Source: Podarcis gaigeae (lineage: Eukaryota). From it: a stretch of 64,000 nt of DNA. Numbering within the stretch: position 1 is the stretch's first letter; each line of letters starts with the position of its first letter. Made by a program: the position numbers and the translations under genes. Below, piece by piece: positions 28,758-40,800 of the stretch. The notes under the pieces were generated by a model, which saw nothing but the letters and a program-made list of their open reading frames with translations, did no database searches and was not told where the DNA came from. The stretch lies in the NCBI GenBank assembly GCA_964106915.2, contig OZ066914.1. One strand, 5' to 3'.

Positions 28758-29104
28758 TGCTGTAGGTTAAACCACAGAGCCTAGGACTTGCCAATCAGAA
28801 GGTTGGTGGTTCGAATTCCCACGAAGGGGTGAGCTCCCATTGTTCGGTCCCAGCTCCTGCCAACCTAGCAGTTCAAAAGCACGTCAAAGTGCAAGTAGAT
28901 AAATAGGTACCACTCCAGCAGGAAGGTAAACGGCGTTTCCGTGTGCTGCTCTGGTTTGCCAGAAGCGGCTTAGTCATGCTGGCCACATGACCCGGGAGCT
29001 GTCTGCGGACGAACGCCAGTTCCCTCGGCCAATAGAGCGAGATGAGCACCGCAACCCCAGAGTCGGTCACGACTGGACCTAATGGTCAGGGGCCCCTTTA
29101 CCTT
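28758..29104 (+). mobile_element. Sauria SINE, slightly 5'-truncated
   Basis: 14-bp TSD TAAGCTGCCTAGAA at 28744-28757 and 29105-29118. Confidence 0.9.
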
Positions 29105-29129
29105 TAAGCTGCCTAGAAATGATGCTGTC

Positions 29130-29889
29130 TGTCAGAGCCACCCGTGGTCCCAGCTCACAAGAGACCAAAGTCCAGTCCAAGTTATATACAAAAGGTTTTA
29201 TTGAAGAACATTGTTGGCATTACATCCAAGCTCCGTGGCTCCGGATCTGTTACTCTTAGATCGTAGAAGTCCCCTCTGAGTCAGTCCCGCCCCTGCACCA
29301 GCTTAAGAGGCTTGTACTGCTCCACCTTTTCCTCTCCTTCCTTTTCCGCAGGGTCTTCCTGCCCCCCTGTGCTCCCTCCCTTCGGGACTCCCCCGAGGCT
29401 GAGTCTTCTGACGCCTGCTCCCCCCTCCTTCGTGCTTTGGGACCAGGCTCCTCCTCAGGGCTCTCCTCATTTCCGCGCGCCTCCACATTTGAACTTGGCG
29501 CGCGTACGTTGCCTCTGACCTTCCTTTCGACCGTTACGCTACTCTCGGTACTACACTCCTCCCCTTCCGGCAGGACGTTCTGCTCCGAACTCCTTCCCCT
29601 CTCTGCTCCCTGTTCTGCTCTTTCTGACACACTGGCAACTCCACCCCCTTCACTCCGTTCCGACGGAGAGGCCGGTCCCGATCTCCAACCCCCACTGGGG
29701 ATTCCCTCTTCGTTCCCCTGCTTCTGACTGCTTCCCTCTCTACTGCCCCTTGGCCTGACCAGGGGGGCTCCTTTTTGGGAATCCTCGGATTCACTTGACG
29801 GACTCACTGACAACCTCGGGTCATCGTCGTCCTCTTCCTCGTCGCCCTGGGACCCCTCCCCCTCGCTCTCTGTCCCTGAAACCCTGACA
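29130..29889 (-). repeat. 3' LTR
   Basis: Copy of 34854-35613 (offset 5724); minus-strand AATAAA at 29197-29202. Confidence 0.96.
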
Positions 29890-32800
29890 TCCATCCCCCC
29901 CTCGAAGCCCCCCCTTCCCCCCTCCCGCCCATCAGGTGCAGGTTGTAGGAGCTGCAGCTCTTCGGAGGTGGATGCAGGATACAGGTTGTGTACCTCCATT
30001 TCCTCTGCTTGCAGTTCGGTGTATGAGTGTTCGAATTCGGGTTCTTGACCCAAAGTGTTCTCTTCTCCCTCTTCCATTGGTACCTCGTCTGGTGCTGCCG
30101 GCCAAGGTCCCGTCAGCCATTTCCTGCGCCAGTCCTCCTCTGGTTGCTCGTCCCACCAATAAGAGGGTTCTGTGTCCACCCCTGAGCACGATCCCCTGGG
30201 CGGGCTAGATTCTGGCGTTCTCTCCTCGGCTGAAGAAAAACCCCGGAAAGTACTGTCTGAGAGTGTGGGCGTAAAGAGCCAGTCATCAAAGTACTCGGCT
30301 GGCATGGGTCTATGCGGGAAAAGGGCATGGAACTCGTCTTTTAGAAGAGGTTCGTCTAAAGCGTAGCCCGGCACCCAACCGTTGGCACTGGCTGGAGTGC
30401 CCTCTGTGGCTAGAAAGTATTCTACCCCCTCTTTCCCCCATCTCGAGTCCAGGATTTCTGTGACCTCGTTGAGTGGTTCGGCCCTAGGCGCCCTCTCCCT
30501 CTCCTGTGACTTAGTGTGTAGTTGTGGGACTGTTTCAGACTCCTGAAACCTGTGCGGTGCCTTGTAGGGGGTGAGCACCGACCTGTGAAATACTGGATGC
30601 ACTCTGGAACCTTCGGGGAGGGCTAGTCGAAAGGCTACAGGGTTGATCTTAGCCTCCACCTGGTACGGCCCTAACTGCCTGTGCCCTAGCTTCTTCTTGG
30701 CCAACGACTTGGTTGGCATCGCTTGGGCCGCTAACCACACCCAGTCCCCCACCTGGATCTCCTCCCCCGCTCTCCTGCTTTTGTCTGCCTGCACCTTATA
30801 TGCTTGCTTGGCCAGCTCCAAATGTCTCCGCAACTCTTCGTGCACCTCCTGCAGCTCCGCTGCAAACTGGTCGGCTTCTTGCGGCACCCCCTCTCTCGGT
30901 GCCCCGAACCCCGGGAAGGTTCTGGGATGACGACCGTTGTTCGCGAAGAACGGCGTCACCCCCGTGGACGCGTGCTTCGTGTTGTTATAGGCAAACTCTG
31001 CCATCGGCAGGTAGTCCACCCAAGCTGCGGGTCGCTGATTGGCGTAACATCTCAGGTACTGCTGCATGATCGCGTTGACCCTCTCAGCTTGGCCGTTGGT
31101 CTGTGGGTGTCTCGCCGACATAAGGTTGATCTTGACGTTCAGGATACCTAAAAGCTTCTGCCAAAAATTGGAAACAAACTGGCGCCCCCTGTCGGACAGG
31201 ATGGACTGCGGCAGCCCATGCACCTTGAACACGTGATCGATGAAGAGTTTGGCAGTCTGTTCCGCCGTCGCCACCTTTGCGCACGGAATGAAGTGCGCCA
31301 TCTTGGTGAACAGGTCCACAACCACCAGTACCGCCGTCTTCCCTCTGGAGCTGGGCAGGTCAGTAACGAAGTCCAGGGCTACCCTCTCCCACGGTTGCTG
31401 TGGCGTTTCCAGCGGTTCCAACAGCCCCGCTGGCTTCTGGTGTACTGGCTTGAACCTCTGACAAGTGTCACACCTGGCGACGTAATCCGCTACCTCTCCG
31501 CGCATCCGGGGCCACCAAAAGTCCCTTGCCACCAGTTCTATTGTCTTCTCCTTACCGAAGTGGCCAGCACTGGGGGCGTCGTGCAACTGCTGCAGAACCT
31601 TTGCGCAAAGCTCGTCGCTTGGCACGTAGAGGGCACCTTTGCGAGTTAGCAGTCCGTCGCGCAGTTGGAACTCTTCTCCACTCTGCACACCTCTGCGCAA
31701 CTCCTCCATTTTGGACTGTGCGAACTGATCCACTTGCAACGCGCGTCGCACCGCGTCCAGATCTACTGTGATGGCAGCGCACGACCACGCCTGCGGTGCG
31801 AAAATGTGCTTGGCTGCTACTGGCGCCGCTTCATCGAGATATTGCGGTTTCCTGGATAGCGCATCGGCTATAACGTTGGAATCTCCTGGGATGTACTCTA
31901 TCCGAAAGTCGAAATCCGCGAAGAATTCCGCCCAGCGCATGTGTCTCTGGCTTTGGAGCTTCGCCGTGCGCCAATACTCTAGGTTCTTGTGATCCGTGCG
32001 GACCTGTACTGTGTGCTTGGCTCCTATGAGGAAGTGTCGCCACGCTTTGAAAGCTGCGTGAATGGCTAACAGCTCCCTGTCCCATATGGTGTAGTTTTGC
32101 TCCGCCTTGCTGAGCTTTCGGGAGTAAAAGGCACCGGGTCTCCAGTTTCCATGTGGATCTTCTTGCAGGAGTACGGCTCCAACCGCTCTGTCTGACGCGT
32201 CGGTCTCCACTCGCATGGGCCTGCCTGGATTCACGTGCAGCAGCTGCTCCTCGGAGGCGAAAAGGCTTTTAAGCTTCCGAAAAGAGCGCTCCGCCTGTTC
32301 CGTCCACACGAACCTCTTCTTCTTGGAACTCAGAGTGTCCGTGATCGCTGCCGTCTCCTTTGCAAAACCTCTGATGAATTTGCAGTAGAAGTTGGCGAAG
32401 CCGATGAATCTCTGGACTTCCTTCCGATTGCGTGGGCTCTTCCAGTCCAACACCGCACGGACCTTGACGCTGTCCATGGCGAGCCCCTTGTCGGACAGCT
32501 TGTAGCCTAAGAAATCCACCTCCGTCACATCAAACTGGCACTTCTCTAACTTGGCGTAGAGCCTGTTCTCCCGTAGTCTCTGCAGGACTTCTTTTACGTC
32601 CTTCTCATGGGCCTCTTCCGTTTCCGAAAAGATCAGGATGTCATCGAGGAAACACACACATTTCTTGTAGAGAAGTCCCGCTAGCACGTGATGCATAAAG
32701 GCTTGGAAGACGTGAGATCCATTTTGGAGACCAAACGGCATAACTCTGTATTCATACGTGCCCAGAGGCGTGAACATGGCCGTCTTCCACTCATCGCCCT

Positions 32801-33767
32801 CCCGGATGCGTATGAGGTTATACGCTCCACGCAGATCCAATTTGGTGAAGATCTTCCCCTTCCTCACGGTTGCTAGGAGATCATCTATCTTGGGCATGGG
32901 GAAGGCCTTGGGCTTGGTCATACTGTTTATGAACCTATAGTCCACAATGAGTCTTTTTTGGGGCGTGTCCTTCTTCTTTACAAAGAACACAGGACTGCCC
33001 CCCACTGCTTTCGATTCCCGGATGAATCCACGCTTCAAATTGTGCTCTATGAACCCCCTGAGCTCTTGCATCTCGTCCTCAGACATGGAATACAGTTTTG
33101 CAGTCGGCAACTGCGCCCCCGGCACCAGGTCGATGGCACAATCATAAGGTCTGTGGGGCAGCAACTGGTCAGCTTCCTTCTCGCAGAAAACCTCCAGGAA
33201 CCCTTCGTACTTGCTAGGTACTGCCTGCACCATGCCAAGTCGCAGCTGGTGCTCAGCCCCCTCCTCCTGGCAGGACTGGATGCAATTTTGAGCACAGTAC
33301 GATGAGCAAAAGGTGATCTGGCGTTGGTACCACGCTACAGCAGGACTGTGTCTCTCCAGCCAACTCATGCCTAATACTATAGGCGTGTCAGACAGGTGGG
33401 TGACATTGAAGCTAATGACTTCTCGGTGATCTCCTATCCGCATCACCATGGGAGGTGTCTGTTGCACAACTTGCCCTCCAAGCAATTTCCTGCCATCCAC
33501 CGTGACTACGTTCAGAGGCGTCGTGGCGGGCAGAAGCGCTATGCGATGCTGCTTGACGAATTGCATCCCCACGAAATCGGCGTTGCTCCCAGAATCGATC
33601 GTGAGGGGCACTTCTAGGGTGGTCCCATTTGGCAACTGAAGTGTTGCGGTGAGCTGCACCGCTGGCTTGGGTGGTAAAGGGTCTGTGGGTTGCAAAGACG
33701 CTGGGGACTGTTCTATAGATCCGCCTGGCTGAGCCCCAGCATTCGTGCTTACAGCCAGGCACTTTCG
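29256..33767 (-). CDS. pol: Pol (protease, RT, RNase H, integrase, chromodomain, long acidic/basic tail), expressed by -1 frameshift from gag
   Basis: IDSGSNADF (PR); LDLRGAYNLIR, MPFGL, FLDDILI (RT); ETDAS, RELLA, RTDHKNL, ADALSR (RH); HDAPSAGH..CDTC, LDFV, SDRG, QAERVN, GPY (IN); EVTEILDSRW..EYFL..GWVP (chromo). No internal stops. Confidence 0.95.
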   Translation of the reverse strand, partial: RKCLAVSTNAGAQPGGSIEQSPASLQPTDPLPPKPAVQLTATLQLPNGTTLEVPLTIDSGSNADFVGMQFVKQHRIALLPATTPLNVVTVDGRKLLGGQVVQQTPPMVMRIGDHREVISFNVTHLSDTPIVLGMSWLERHSPAVAWYQRQITFCSSYCAQNCIQSCQEEGAEHQLRLGMVQAVPSKYEGFLEVFCEKEADQLLPHRPYDCAIDLVPGAQLPTAKLYSMSEDEMQELRGFIEHNLKRGFIRESKAVGGSPVFFVKKKDTPQKRLIVDYRFINSMTKPKAFPMPKIDDLLATVRKGKIFTKLDLRGAYNLIRIREGDEWKTAMFTPLGTYEYRVMPFGLQNGSHVFQAFMHHVLAGLLYKKCVCFLDDILIFSETEEAHEKDVKEVLQRLRENRLYAKLEKCQFDVTEVDFLGYKLSDKGLAMDSVKVRAVLDWKSPRNRKEVQRFIGFANFYCKFIRGFAKETAAITDTLSSKKKRFVWTEQAERSFRKLKSLFASEEQLLHVNPGRPMRVETDASDRAVGAVLLQEDPHGNWRPGAFYSRKLSKAEQNYTIWDRELLAIHAAFKAWRHFLIGAKHTVQVRTDHKNLEYWRTAKLQSQRHMRWAEFFADFDFRIEYIPGDSNVIADALSRKPQYLDEAAPVAAKHIFAPQAWSCAAITVDLDAVRRALQVDQFAQSKMEELRRGVQSGEEFQLRDGLLTRKGALYVPSDELCAKVLQQLHDAPSAGHFGKEKTIELVARDFWWPRMRGEVADYVARCDTCQRFKPVHQKPAGLLEPLETPQQPWERVALDFVTDLPSSRGKTAVLVVVDLFTKMAHFIPCAKVATAEQTAKLFIDHVFKVHGLPQSILSDRGRQFVSNFWQKLLGILNVKINLMSARHPQTNGQAERVNAIMQQYLRCYANQRPAAWVDYLPMAEFAYNNTKHASTGVTPFFANNGRHPRTFPGFGAPREGVPQEADQFAAELQEVHEELRRHLELAKQAYKVQADKSRRAGEEIQVGDWVWLAAQAMPTKSLAKKKLGHRQLGPYQVEAKINPVAFRLALPEGSRVHPVFHRSVLTPYKAPHRFQESETVPQLHTKSQERERAPRAEPLNEVTEILDSRWGKEGVEYFLATEGTPASANGWVPGYALDEPLLKDEFHALFPHRPMPAEYFDDWLFTPTLSDSTFRGFSSAEERTPESSPPRGSCSGVDTEPSYWWDEQPEEDWRRKWLTGPWPAAPDEVPMEEGEENTLGQEPEFEHSYTELQAEEMEVHNLYPASTSEELQLLQPAPDGREGGRGGFEGGMDVRVSGTESEGEGSQGDEEEDDDDPRLSVSPSSESEDSQKGAPLVRPRGSREGSSQKQGNEEGIPSGGWRSGPASPSERSEGGGVASVSERAEQGAERGRSSEQNVLPEGEECSTESSVTVERKVRGNVRAPSSNVEARGNEESPEEEPGPKARRRGEQASEDSASGESRREGAQGGRKTLRKRKERKRWSSTSLLSWCRGGTDSEGTSTI
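29890..29903 (-). other. Polypurine tract
   Basis: GAGGGGGGGATGGA immediately 5' of the 3' LTR TG. Confidence 0.9.
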
Positions 33768-33773
33768 TTTCCC
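33700..33773 (-). promoter_or_regulatory. Programmed -1 ribosomal frameshift signal
   Basis: Slippery G GGA AAC (33773-33767), 6-nt spacer, stem 1 GCCTGGCTG/CAGCCAGGC, stem 2 GCTGGGG/CCCCAGC. Confidence 0.88.
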
Positions 33774-34792
33774 TGAAGCTCCTCTTCTTGGATCACTTCT
33801 GCTGCTACTGTTGCTAAAGCTGCAGTGTGTTTCTGGAGCCTCTGGGGGCACTCTTTCGCCATGTGCAGTGCACTGTCGCAAATGTAACACTTCCTGGTTC
33901 CTCTAGGAGGCTTCGCCTTTACTGCACCGGAAGCTGGGGCTCTGGCTGTTGCTTGAGCCTTAGCACCACCAAGTTCCATCGGCTCCTCCCCCTGCCTCCC
34001 CAGCGGCGAGGGATGTGACTGACTGAACTCCCTGGGGATGAAAGAAGACGTTCTCGCTGGTGGACGCACCTGACGTTCTTCCTCATTGTGCCAAGGACGT
34101 CCCTCGTGACGTATCCCAATCGCCAGAGCCCTCTGCACCACCTCCTCCAGGGTCTGAGGTCTGTCTCCCCTGGCAAGTTCGTCCTTTATGGGACCGCTGA
34201 GACCCTCCCAGAACAAATCCCTCACAGGTGTGCAGTCTTTCTCCCAGCGTAACGCAGTCAGTAAAGCAAAAAATCTGGAATGGTACTGACGCACAGTGGC
34301 TTTGTCTTGCCGCAGTCCAAATATCTCCCTGCGTGCAAGATCCAAATCTACGGTTGACTGGAAGCAGGCATCCATCGCTTTAATGAATTCATCAGAATCG
34401 CGGCGGGCAGGGCCATCTTCACGCCACAAATTGCGCAACCAGTCTCTGGCCGCCCCATACAAGTGAGAAACAATAAACCCCACTTTCTCCTCCTCATCTT
34501 TAAAGTCATGACGAAGCAAGTGCAATGCATACAAAACGTCTGCTCTGAAACTGGGGTAGTGCTTCAGGTTCCCATCGAAGTGGGTGACTAGGCTGCCCCC
34601 CCCCCGCCTTCCAAGTCCAATTCCCTCTGACCTGGACCCTGGGAACCCTTCCCTGCTTGCACGCTCCCACCTTGTTTGCAGGTCTTGGCAGCGCTTCTCC
34701 ATTTCGTCATGCTTCTTCTGAGACGCAAGGACTGCAGCGGTGAGTTCGGAAACTGTAGTTCGCAGTGCTGTCAGCTGATCCTCCGCACTCAT
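33749..34792 (-). CDS. gag: Gag (347 aa), coiled-coil N-terminus, capsid, CCHC zinc knuckle
   Basis: First ATG in context GCCATGA; LRQDKATVRQYHSRF MHR-like motif, EPMELG, CYICDSALHMAKEC. Confidence 0.93.
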   Translation of the reverse strand: MSAEDQLTALRTTVSELTAAVLASQKKHDEMEKRCQDLQTRWERASREGFPGSRSEGIGLGRRGGGSLVTHFDGNLKHYPSFRADVLYALHLLRHDFKDEEEKVGFIVSHLYGAARDWLRNLWREDGPARRDSDEFIKAMDACFQSTVDLDLARREIFGLRQDKATVRQYHSRFFALLTALRWEKDCTPVRDLFWEGLSGPIKDELARGDRPQTLEEVVQRALAIGIRHEGRPWHNEEERQVRPPARTSSFIPREFSQSHPSPLGRQGEEPMELGGAKAQATARAPASGAVKAKPPRGTRKCYICDSALHMAKECPQRLQKHTAALATVAAEVIQEEELQGNESAWL

Positions 34793-34840: not shown

Positions 34841-34851
34841 AGAGGGGACTT
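34841..34851 (-). promoter_or_regulatory. Primer-binding site of self-priming type
   Basis: AAGTCCCCTCT, 2 nt after the 5' LTR; lacks the TGG of tRNA PBSs; exact complement of AGAGGGGACTT at 35001-34991 within the LTR. Confidence 0.8.
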
Positions 34852-34853
34852 AC

Positions 34854-35613
34854 TGTCAGAGCCACCCGTGGTCCCAGCTCACAAGAGACCAAAGTCCAGT
34901 CCAAGTTATATACAAAAGGTTTTATTGAAGAACATTGTTGGCATTACATCCAAGCTCCGTGGCTCCGGATCTGTTACTCTTAGATCGTAGAAGTCCCCTC
35001 TGAGTCAGTCCCGCCCCTGCACCAGCTTAAGAGGCTTGTACTGCTCCACCTTTTCCTCTCCTTCCTTTTCCGCAGGGTCTTCCTGCCCCCCTGTGCTCCC
35101 TCCCTTCGGGACTCCCCCGAGGCTGAGTCTTCTGACGCCTGCTCCCCCCTCCTTCGTGCTTTGGGACCAGGCTCCTCCTCAGGGCTCTCCTCATTTCCGC
35201 GCGCCTCCACATTTGAACTTGGCGCGCGTACGTTGCCTCTGACCTTCCTTTCGACCGTTACGCTACTCTCGGTACTACACTCCTCCCCTTCCGGCAGGAC
35301 GTTCTGCTCCGAACTCCTTCCCCTCTCTGCTCCCTGTTCTGCTCTTTCTGACACACTGGCAACTCCACCCCCTTCACTCCGTTCCGACGGAGAGGCCGGT
35401 CCCGATCTCCAACCCCCACTGGGGATTCCCTCTTCGTTCCCCTGCTTCTGACTGCTTCCCTCTCTACTGCCCCTTGGCCTGACCAGGGGGGCTCCTTTTT
35501 GGGAATCCTCGGATTCACTTGACGGACTCACTGACAACCTCGGGTCATCGTCGTCCTCTTCCTCGTCGCCCTGGGACCCCTCCCCCTCGCTCTCTGTCCC
35601 TGAAACCCTGACA
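34854..35613 (-). repeat. 5' LTR
   Basis: No differences from the 3' LTR seen by eye; ORF-track translations are identical in several frames. Confidence 0.96.
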
Positions 35614-35759
35614 TCGTCCAATAAGACAGCTTAGAAAACTTTAAAATAAAATGGACTAGGAGGGTAGTGCAGTGGTTTCAACACTGACAAAATGTGTGCT
35701 TGCACTTAGCAGCCATGTTGTGGACAACCTGCAAATGTGGCCCCATTAGAGTAGCCTAA

Positions 35760-36305
35760 CCAAAGACGCCTGCTTCTTGGGAGGAAACCAATGACAAACC
35801 TAGACAGCATCTTAAAAAGCAGAGACATCACCTTGCCGACAAAGGTCCGTATAGTTAAAGCCATGGTTTTCCCAGTAGTGATGTATGGAAGTGAGAGCTG
35901 GACCATAAAGAAGGCTGATCGCCGAAGAATTAATGCTTTTGAATTATGGTGCTAGAGGAGACTCTTGAGAGTCCCATGGACTGCAAGAAGATCAAACCTA
36001 TCCATTCTTAAGGAAATCAGCCCTGAGTGCTCACTGGAAGGACAGATCCTGAAGCTGAGACTCCAATACTTTGGCCACCTCATGAGAAGAGAAGACTCCC
36101 TGGAAAAGACCCTGATGTTGGGAAAGATGGAGGGCACAAGGAGAAGGGGACAACAGAGGACGAGATGGTTGGATAGTGTTCTCAAAGCTACCAGCATGAG
36201 TTTGACCAAACTGCTGGAGGCAGTGGAAGACAGGAGTGCCTGGCGTGCTCTAGTCCATGGGGTCACGAAGAGTCAGACACGACTAAGTGACTAAACAACA
36301 ACAAC
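35760..36305 (+). mobile_element. BovB LINE, 5'-truncated 3' end
   Basis: RLLLGRK.MTNLDSILKSRDITLPTKVRIVKAMVFPVVMYGSESWT...LKLRLQYFGHLMRREDSLEKTLMLGK; (CAA)n tail. Confidence 0.95.
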
Positions 36306-38098
36306 CTGGAAGTTACCAGAGCATGAATTACCAAACATTATTCATTCATGCCAACAAATTTAAATGGGGAAATAATGCTACTTTTCTGGGTAAAAATGCT
36401 CTACATTCAGCAAATTTATTAAATTTGTTTTTATCTTGCACACACCACCATTTAGGGTTCATTGTGCAATTTCATGTTCTACAATGTATAAAGCATGGAC
36501 TTGGGTTTATACTCTTAGACTAGTTAAGGATGGATTCCGAAAGACCCAGCAGATCTATAGCCTACATTTTACAATGAAGTACGGTGTAGTTGAATAAGTC
36601 CCCTTTTATATAGAAGCATCTCAAAACATATGAATATTTCTGCAAGATAAAAATCAATATACTTAATCAACCTCACCAATTCTCCCCAAGTTTTATGCTC
36701 ACCTTAGACAAAGCCCACCCACTCCTCAAATTTTCTCTTCCTAGAAGTAATACAGTCTTTCGGTACTTGAGTCCAAAATCAATGCATGCCATAGAGCCCC
36801 TGCAGCTGTTGTTTACCATGTTGCTGCAACTTCTGGTCCTCCATGTGCCTCTCTGTGGACACAAAATTCTTCACAACAAGCCGAGAACACGACTTGTTAT
36901 GTAACTGGTGAGAGGCGGTAGCGGAGAATGAGGAGGACATGCAACCAAACAATCTACATCATGAAATTCCTGCATGACAATAGTGCTTCTTGTCTCCTTC
37001 CCACTCCAGACTCCCCAAAAGGTTTAAAATATAACTGAGCACATTAGCCTTTTTATTGGAAAACTGGAAATGCACATAAGCCTACAAAGAAGGACTTGCC
37101 AAAATAAGGCAAAACAAAACAAGAAGCTGTTCCGCTCCGAGGAAAGGGGCAGAGGCCAAAAAACTTGAGAAAGAGATTGCAAATAGGGTGAATAAGAGGC
37201 CTGGCCCAAGAGACAGCTACAACCCGGGGGCTCTGGGTTAAGGCAGTCAGACATTCTCAGTTTGGCCCGCCAGTGGCCTGAATTGCACATCCTCTACCCT
37301 GAAAACAAATGCCTCTGGGTGCAGGCAACATGTTCCAAATCTACTCCCCACCCACATTTCAAATTGATGCTCTGTCTTCAACAAAAGGCCTCACAATGGT
37401 ACAGGAGAGAATGTACAAAGCTGTTAAGACAAGAAATGGCTACCACTCTATTGCAAAGCAGCTAAAGGCGAGTTTCTCCTCAGTGGTAGTGATGTAGTAA
37501 GAGAGTGATCCATCTTTCAATGTGATATTTCAACACATTGAACCCTGAAATCTGAATTACATGGACATTATTACAACAGTAGCATTTCAAAAACTATATG
37601 TTTATCTATAGATATAGATACTGCAAAAGACAGAACACTGCTTGCAAAACTTCAAAAAAATGCAATAAAAGCTGAAGAAAAAGGAATGAATTGTTCTCTA
37701 CATCAACAGGAGGCTGAAGCTTTGAGATCAGAGACAGTAACAGCAAGAGGAGGGCACTTCTGCCCTTCTAGCTCAAGACTCAAATGACTCAAGAAGCCTA
37801 ACGAAATATGCTGAAAGTACAATCACAAAGACATAATCGAACAAGCAGCAGATAAAGTCCTGCTGAAACAGAGGGCATCAAGTGGTAGAAGGAGGTAGGG
37901 AGCTGTCCAGATAGGTGTGCTGACATAGAGAAAGCCCTCTTGCACTTCCCACCCCGACTGCACAATTGATGGCAGCAGGATGCATGCATGGAGGACCCCA
38001 CCCCACCCCACCCTGGTGACCATCATGACAGCTAAGAATTATGCAAGTATTTGATGAGTATCCCTGAGTATCCCTTGAGTCATGGTTATCTGAATGTA

Positions 38099-40448: not shown

Positions 40449-40800
40449 AAAGGTAAAAGTACCCCTGACCATTAGGTCCAGTCGTGACGGACTCTGGGGT
40501 TGCGGCGCTCATCTCGCTCTATGGGCCGAGGGAGCCGGCATTTGTCCACAGACAGCTCCCGGGTCGTGTGGCCAGCATGACTAAGCCGCTTCTGGCGAAC
40601 CAGAGCAGTGCACGGAAACGTCATTTACCTTCCCGCTGGAGTGGTACCTATTTATCTACTTGCACTTTGACATGCTTTCGAACTGCTAGGTTGGCAGGAG
40701 CTGGGACAGAGCAACGAGAGCTCACCCCGTCGCAGGGATTTGAACCGCCAACCTTCTGATCGGGAAGTCCTAGGCTCTGTGGTTTAGCCACTCGTGTCCC
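40449..40800 (-). mobile_element. Sauria SINE
   Basis: Family sequence; TSD AATAAATTTAATA at 40433-40445 and 40803-40815. Confidence 0.9.

Follow-up and report, generated by a model that had tools for sequence, protein, structure and literature searches.

A lizard chromovirus whose pol reading frame continues through the U3 region of its 3' long terminal repeat

Introduction

Can the U3 region of a long terminal repeat (LTR) serve as promoter and also encode protein along its whole length? This question is raised by a 64,000-nucleotide (nt) stretch of Podarcis gaigeae DNA, here called the window, which carries a self-priming Ty3/gypsy chromovirus on its minus strand. The two 760-nt LTRs of this element (34854-35613 and 29130-29889) show 0 mismatches and have TG...CA termini; because they are identical, the element is very young. 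Its pol frame remains open after the chromodomain, crosses the polypurine tract (PPT) and runs through all of U3. Accessory genes that overlap U3 are familiar from retroviruses, where nef, sag of mouse mammary tumour virus (MMTV) and foamy virus bel/bet are separate genes. We describe here the frame, its conservation in relatives and the function that its product may have.

Results

The pol frame crosses the PPT and the whole of U3

The chromodomain is followed by 349 open codons, 139 before the LTR and 210 whole codons within the 3' LTR. The frame crosses the PPT as GGFEGGM-D, and the first base of its TAA stop (29256-29258) lies 56 nt from the start of the AATAAA signal. These values bear out the original prediction, made from the sequence of this locus, that pol reads through the PPT and all of U3, with about 350 codons after the chromodomain, about 210 of them in the LTR, EGGMD at the PPT and a stop about 55 nt before AATAAA. 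An acidic run that had been given as EGDEEEDDDD-like differs by one letter (QGDEEEDDDD), and the basic end, resembling a nuclear localisation signal (NLS), stands as RKTLRKRKERKRW at 29360-29322. Beyond that prediction, the element is self-priming, its chromodomain has lost the aromatic cage, and its tail carries an FxGF motif, the most conserved feature there.

The U3 is 69% purine and has few T, and the original prediction cautioned that such stop-poor DNA might by itself explain the frame. Shuffling rejects this: in the given frame, 47 of 10,000 dinucleotide shuffles left the 210 LTR codons free of stops (150 of 10,000 for any of the three frames), as did 1 of 10,000 mononucleotide shuffles. 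All 350 post-chromodomain codons were open in 0 of 10,000 dinucleotide shuffles. The two other sense frames of the LTR part contain 9 and 3 stops.

The layout is shared by a young family and by two clades

The family is large and young: among 1387 first-look candidates, the 40 that were scored are all 99-100% identical. Of the 29 top copies that were parsed, 27, the window copy among them, keep the whole post-chromodomain frame (one additional locus was mis-parsed), and the exact 1548-codon frame is present in 35 of 112 matches selected by integrase. UniRef proteins of Podarcis muralis show the same pol run-on. Relatives were found by searching with P. muralis tails and with integrase alone. 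They form two clades: subfamilies of clade 1, to which the window copy belongs, have 79-82% integrase identity and tails of 348-388 codons, and clade 2 has 51-52% integrase identity and tails of 183-187 codons (198-206 in older members). Relatives with paired LTRs (about 396-830 nt) have 96-232 codons inside the LTR and a stop 9-23 nt into R. Fusion of the frame to pol is retained in every intact family. Many of the 40 full-length copies had been picked for long open frames, and 30 copies per clade were hence also picked by integrase alone; a full tail is present in 23 of the 30 from clade 2. The U3 frame is fused and open in both clades, as the original prediction proposed to check; older copies are often frameshifted.

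A substantial fraction of the older and more damaged copies, from all lineages, lies on a single 29.5-Mb contig (C32), some of them near-identical duplicates; this contig may be a sex-limited or otherwise non-recombining chromosome. Long tails of many other database proteins were discarded as gene-model read-through into unrelated exons.

The U3 frame of clades 1 and 2 evolves as coding sequence

Protein-guided alignments of U3 from natural copies gave a dN/dS ratio of 0.30 in clade 1 (11 copies, 180 codons), with twice the log-likelihood difference (2dL) against dN/dS of 1 reaching 110, and likewise 0.30 in clade 2 (8 copies, 77 codons, 2dL 52). Alignments built from DNA only gave 0.32 (11 copies, 2dL 113) and 0.34 (12 copies, 2dL 71), respectively. 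The other sense frames of U3 range from 1.05 to 2.96 on the protein-guided set and from 1.0 to 3.0 overall. The U3 body alone has a dN/dS of 0.34-0.36 in the two clades (2dL 78 and 30), the 139-codon linker 0.36 in clade 1 and 0.26 in clade 2, and the integrase core 0.09 and 0.07. For the final 17 codons of clade 2 the ratio is 0.08, with synonymous arginine exchanges.

Indels were scored in alignments of 64 clade-1 and 44 clade-2 copies, which remained of 84 and 54 requested after unparsed and near-identical ones were dropped. Among indels common to at least 2 copies, 8 of 11 within U3 are multiples of three, compared with 0 of 8 after the stop; of the three that break the frame, two are expansions of G runs and one is a 45-nt insert that occurs in a 46-nt form. 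Judged by these substitution and indel patterns, clades 1 and 2 are under selection on the U3 protein product, in the pol frame only. The proposal that U3 doubles as coding sequence is upheld in both clades by a dN/dS of about 0.3, by frame-keeping indels and by a stop fixed 9-23 nt past the predicted transcript start.

Self-priming places the stop inside the predicted R

The 5' LTR is followed by 11 nt that are reverse-complementary to LTR positions 613-623, with compensating changes between families, and a predicted RNA fold pairs this primer binding site (PBS) with the self-primer. Self-priming Tf1/Sushi elements use the 5' end of the RNA as primer (PMC4600332, PMC6317226). Because of this, R likely begins at 35001 in the 5' LTR and at 29277 in the 3' LTR, with the transcript start deduced from the self-primer. 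The pol frame would then span the whole of U3 and 19 nt of predicted R, the 11-nt self-primer included, and it passes a TTA 29 nt upstream of the predicted start.

Clade-1 elements have GTAAGT or GTGAGT directly after the 5' LTR. In the window copy this is GTAAGT (34848-34853), a perfect splice-donor hexamer that overlaps the PBS; no such hexamer is present after the 5' LTR in clade 2 or in a third, more distant lineage. Four contig sets compared with the element covered its full length and were uninformative on splicing or start sites.

An FxGF module follows a chromodomain without its aromatic cage

The most conserved part of the tail lies right after the chromodomain, where an anchor of the form Phe-x4-Phe is followed by eight residues and then FxGF, in register in both clades. 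The module starts about 5 residues past the chromodomain, with no conserved spacer between. All 64 clade-1 copies have FxGF, and each of its three fixed positions shows synonymous changes. The clade-1 motif aligns with the first of two FxGF motifs in clade 2. FxGF also occurs once in protein P0014 and twice in P0012. Linker length is 8-9 residues in all; clade-2 linkers are strongly acidic and rich in Ser/Thr, and the window copy has five Ser/Thr and one Asp. Shuffled sequences contained two FxGF in 5-17 of 20,000 cases and one in 206-297 of 20,000 (about 1-1.5%). The two Phe of the anchor are invariant; a shallow model gives it a three-residue helix at a pLDDT of about 35-40.

The aromatic cage of the chromodomain keeps 0 of 3 residues in clade 1, 1 of 3 in clade 2 and 3 of 3 in the third lineage. 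We searched 146 database proteins for FxGF after a complete chromodomain and found it in 13: 11 members of these lineages and 2 cases of unrelated read-through. A midpoint-rooted integrase tree of 48 rows unites in a single branch (100/100) the 13 rows that combine FxGF with a broken cage. Sister rows, from the Podarcis gaigeae genome, Rhineura and Vipera, have an intact cage and no FxGF.

Known partners of the TND of LEDGF and HRP2 all carry FxGF after a helix and a linker of 8-16 residues (PMC9987994). The genome contains exons of two TND genes. One is identical to P. muralis PSIP1 over 73 residues, and the other appears to be HDGFL2. Complex prediction with P. muralis LEDGF 398-488 and 34 residues around the window FxGF was uninformative (score 0.00, single sequences without alignments or folded controls). 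A sequence search of the PDB with the clade-2 linker returned one irrelevant match only.

The rest of the tail is probably disordered and ends in a basic stretch

The tail has no Pfam match and no usable ESM Atlas match. AlphaFold2 (9-sequence alignment) gave a pLDDT below 50 across it and predicted no fold. In both clades the tail ends in a basic stretch, which shows synonymous exchanges, and then L-x-W. The Leu codon of L-x-W is TTA in 60 of 63 clade-1 and 43 of 43 clade-2 copies; because this codon sits at the TATA position, the L-x-W end would be doubly constrained. The acidic run was considered as a conserved chaperone-like site and dropped, since relatives lack it.

A third lineage and other relatives

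The third lineage has about 55% integrase identity, an intact aromatic cage and a 131-residue tail with 117 codons in U3. Its frame stops about 39 nt before its own self-primer, just before a TATA-like GATAAAA. Shared variants number 5 nonsynonymous and 3 synonymous in U3, and 1 and 14 in integrase. Its basic end contains RRSARL, a six-residue match to the eight-residue nucleosome-binding motif of HMGN, RRSARLSA (PMC12487698). After the stop, a short tandem repeat of the TCCTGTTCC type, which differs in copy number, interrupts the third-lineage LTR alignments.

The gene models P0020 and P0021 (Vipera latastei and Rhineura floridana), known as proteins only, keep an intact chromodomain followed by an acidic tail of 100-120 residues with a basic end, and they cluster with the lacertid lineages in the integrase tree (98/97). 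Eight further integrases, four of them from fish (P0027, P0031, P0079, P0082, P0093, P0117, P0138 and P0155), end about 15-28 residues past GG-x-V and share an R..SP.[YF] terminus. GG-x-V would be the PPT/LTR edge, as placed from protein only, and the shared ending is possibly a short conserved LTR-encoded peptide. Protein P0085 terminates in RRSARI.

Element layout and flanks

The features of the element are collected in Table 1. By its domain order, chromodomain, self-priming and ends, the element belongs to the Tf1/Sushi chromoviruses, for which the integrase tree used database relatives only. Pfam found the order protease, reverse transcriptase, RNase H and integrase (PR-RT-RH-IN) plus SH3 on the window pol and no chromo match on the window protein itself; support for the chromodomain comes from weak HP1 matches and from PF00385 matches on the clade-2 proteins P0006 and P0007. 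The GGGAAAC heptamer is likely the -1 gag-pol frameshift site. It was found in 4 of 8 other copies checked and was not found in three clade-2 copies.

Table 1. Features of the window element, with coordinates in the 64,000-nt stretch
Feature	Coordinates	Strand	Basis or remark
5' LTR	34854..35613	-	760 nt, same sequence as 3' LTR
Self-primer (11 nt), predicted first transcript bases and R start	34991..35001	-	complementary to PBS, covaries with PBS between families, predicted fold pairs both
PBS, self-priming type	34841..34851	-	complement of LTR stretch, covariation, predicted fold
gag (capsid, zinc knuckle), 347 residues	33749..34792	-	open reading frame and Pfam
GGGAAAC slippery heptamer followed by predicted hairpin, inside gag/pol overlap	33767..33773	-	sequence, predicted fold
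pol frame, 1548 codons without stop: PR, RT, RNase H, integrase, SH3, chromodomain, 349-residue tail	29256..33902	-	open reading frame and domain matches
Chromodomain, all 3 aromatic-cage positions substituted	30306..30467 (edges approximate)	-	weak HP1 matches (E 0.015-0.03), residue comparison
Hydrophobic anchor, 8-residue Ser/Thr linker and FxGF, candidate TND-interacting motif	30237..30290	-	motif definition from PMC9987994
Acidic linker of tail, 139 codons, chromodomain to LTR	29890..30305	-	33 acidic versus 8 basic residues
PPT, translated GGRGGFEGGM	29890..29926 (5' edge approximate)	-	sequence
3' LTR	29130..29889	-	760 nt
U3, coding throughout, 204 codons	29278..29889	-	frame and selection data
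Acidic run DEEEDDDD	29820..29843	-	sequence; absent from relatives
Basic stretch RKTLRKRKERKRW close to C-terminus, candidate NLS or chromatin anchor	29322..29360	-	sequence
LLSW codons; TTA 29 nt ahead of predicted start site, TATA-like position	29298..29309	-	sequence, copy comparison
Final codons and stop TAA (29258-29256), within predicted R	29256..29277	-	sequence
AATAAA polyadenylation signal, 3' of stop	29197..29202	-	sequence

The flanks of the window copy, GACGA (35614-35618) and GACAG (29125-29129), match as a target-site duplication (TSD) at 3 of 5 positions; a perfect 5-bp TSD is present in 20 of 40 fetched copies as parsed. An unprocessed 2-nt GA end, the same dinucleotide as between PPT and LTR, may have been retained at the imperfect junction. 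Just beyond the 5' LTR, at 35720-36330, lies a fragment that we take to be derived from a short or long interspersed nuclear element (SINE- or LINE-like). The 3' flank is part of a 341-nt repeat (28765-29105) with an inverted copy, 90% identical, 11 kb away (40449-40789). The rest of the window has 160 stop-to-stop frames, and the 50 longest of them gave no Pfam family.

Discussion

On balance, we lean towards a reading in which the disordered 349-residue tail, likely still attached to integrase, brings integrase to host chromatin in place of the degenerate chromodomain. Transcription would start at the self-primer, leaving the genome-length RNA with a single U3, at its 3' end. Frameshifted Gag-Pol ribosomes would read U3 and stop in R, about 55 nt before the poly(A) signal. 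It is very probable that the U3 frame is translated and its product selected, and the tail probably remains on integrase. The FxGF module, with a phosphorylated linker, would bind the TND/IBD of LEDGF (PSIP1) or HRP2 (HDGFL2). For the window family, such binding to the LEDGF/HRP2 TND is a possibility about which the motif evidence leaves us somewhat doubtful; its prospects are better for clade 2. The odds are about even that U3 contributes mostly a charged spacer, which would present the basic end as a signal for nuclear import or nucleosome binding. More tentatively, a squamate lineage may have swapped its targeting: the chromodomain cage would have decayed while integrase gained a tail, encoded for the most part in the promoter, that mimics host FxGF to hijack LEDGF/HRP2. 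The spacer and a basic anchor to chromatin would then come from U3.

Several observations weigh against this reading. A lone FxGF arises in about 1-1.5% of shuffles, and pol has one or two further examples at other places; the case for the motif hence rests on position, spacing and conservation; the linker of the window copy has one Asp instead of the usual acidic run. The U3 bodies of clades 1 and 2 do not align, and the conservation of L-x-W may be at the DNA level, through overlap with the TATA position. The fit for the last 17 codons did not converge in clade 1. A short non-coding control was noisy: one frame had a dN/dS of 0.59 (2dL 4.4), and in clade 1 the greatest variability again fell on third positions. 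Four copies have in common a 1-nt insertion in a G run of U3, and shared indels break the frame in 5 of 8 cases in the 139-codon linker and in 2 of 3 in integrase, mostly at G runs. Because of the U3 insertion and the linker indels, frameshifted tails may have been copied. Among older clade-1 copies picked by integrase alone, 6 of 30 have a full tail, a count that includes an end variant outside the search pattern. Near-duplicates account for 7 of these 30, and in most of the 30 pol is also disrupted at other places. Indels in multiples of three and a dN/dS below 1, both suggested as checks by the original prediction, were found in U3 of clades 1 and 2; the U3 frame of the third lineage shows no selection signal, its dN/dS being 1.37.

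The same frame and selection data fit equally well a tail that is translated with pol and then cut off by the element protease, to act as a free accessory protein such as an LTR transactivator or an anti-silencing factor recruiting TND-bearing elongation factors. A released tail would carry a basic end and an acidic body, and transcription no less than integration could make use of a TND-binding motif (PMC9987994). The first conserved motif, though, follows the chromodomain after about 5 residues with no conserved spacer, and the LTR-encoded part of CRM is described as an integrase C-terminus (PMC3059260). No cleavage site came to light, although no search was aimed at one. We consider release of the tail unlikely. 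Production of the tail from a spliced or sub-genomic RNA, like the U3 accessory genes of retroviruses and with incidental fusion to pol, is quite improbable. Clade 1 has the donor-like GTAAGT/GTGAGT and a pyrimidine-rich AG under the FxGF codons, and in-frame Met codons occur at pol 1276, 1302 and 1337; but clade 2 and the third lineage have no donor, the PBS accounts for the sequence, clade 2 has Val in place of the Met before the LTR, and the pol fusion persists in every intact family.

Long 3' untranslated regions (UTRs) trigger decay, and U3 might be kept open mainly to shorten the 3' UTR and shield the RNA from nonsense-mediated decay, the peptide being merely harmless and disordered. This would suit a stop that lies near the R start whatever the LTR length, U3 bodies that are wholly different between clades, and a third lineage that is open in U3 without a dN/dS below 1. 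It leaves FxGF unexplained and conflicts with the amino-acid constraint shown by the dN/dS of the U3 body (0.34-0.36) and of the last 17 codons of clade 2 (0.08) and by synonymous Arg exchanges, and we give it a low probability. The frame as a by-product of purine-rich, stop-poor promoter DNA retains next to no credibility: composition speaks for it, and the shuffles, the frame-specific dN/dS and the indels in multiples of three refute it for clades 1 and 2.

The original prediction held that Gypsy pol normally ends before the PPT, which is overstated. In the centromeric retrotransposons of plant CRM group A, pol crosses the PPT into the 3' LTR, and the LTR-encoded integrase end (CR motif) has been proposed as a targeting domain (PMC3059260). 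The pol frame likewise enters the 3' LTR in the Beetle and Tekay Bingo elements of beet (PMC3605345). The lizard element resembles these as a chromovirus with pol across the PPT. The CRM elements of group A, in contrast, are plant elements primed by tRNA-Met, whereas the lizard PBS pairs with its own R; the CR motif replaces the chromodomain there, while the lizard element keeps a degenerate chromodomain before the PPT. Its extension is 349 residues long and spans all of U3, the TATA position and the self-primer, and its best motif, FxGF, lies ahead of the PPT. Fish Tf2-like relatives seem to pass the PPT by about 15-28 residues, with the R..SP.[YF] ending and a mostly kept cage, on protein data from which the LTR edge was placed.

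Domain order, a chromodomain after integrase, the self-priming PBS, the TGTYANR end and the 5-bp TSD are shared with Tf1/Sushi V-clade chromoviruses (PMC6317226, PMC4600332, PMC3601003); the accessible text of these three papers makes no mention of a long LTR-encoded tail. The FxGF module resembles the TND-interacting and IBD-binding motifs (TIM/IBM) of IWS1, KMT2A, JPO2 and JIL-1 in FxGF itself and in its linker length of 8-9 residues; it may also resemble them in its hydrophobic anchor, in the Ser/Thr or acidic character of the linker and in a disordered setting (PMC9987994, bioRxiv 10.1101/624023). Those are host chromatin proteins, and the lizard motif is a candidate one. Separate sense additional open reading frames (aORFs) have been reported in LTR retrotransposons (PMC7264820). 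Like these and the retroviral U3 genes, the lizard coding sequence follows integrase and overlaps or lies near U3; unlike them, it is continuous with pol.

In the literature searched, to which repeat databases, figures, supplements and most subscription papers did not belong, we found no vertebrate chromovirus with a U3-long pol tail. Nor did that literature, likewise without Repbase, Dfam, supplements and most subscription papers, contain a retrotransposon integrase with FxGF or a link between retrotransposons and LEDGF. A U3-long pol tail is apparently undescribed in vertebrates, while the entry of pol into the LTR is itself known from plant CRM/Tekay.

The two clades are the scope of our claim, and selection is not generalised beyond them. 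Within it, this is a vertebrate LTR whose U3 would be promoter and selected coding sequence from end to end, the TATA position and self-primer included. Annotation that trims pol at the PPT loses a conserved protein segment. A single genome contains many copies of a cage-intact lineage and of two cage-less FxGF lineages, which provides a built-in comparison of targeting. Lentiviral integrases contact the LEDGF domain by another surface; if the FxGF module does bind LEDGF/HRP2, the lizard elements would represent an independent origin of the lentiviral tether, by motif mimicry.

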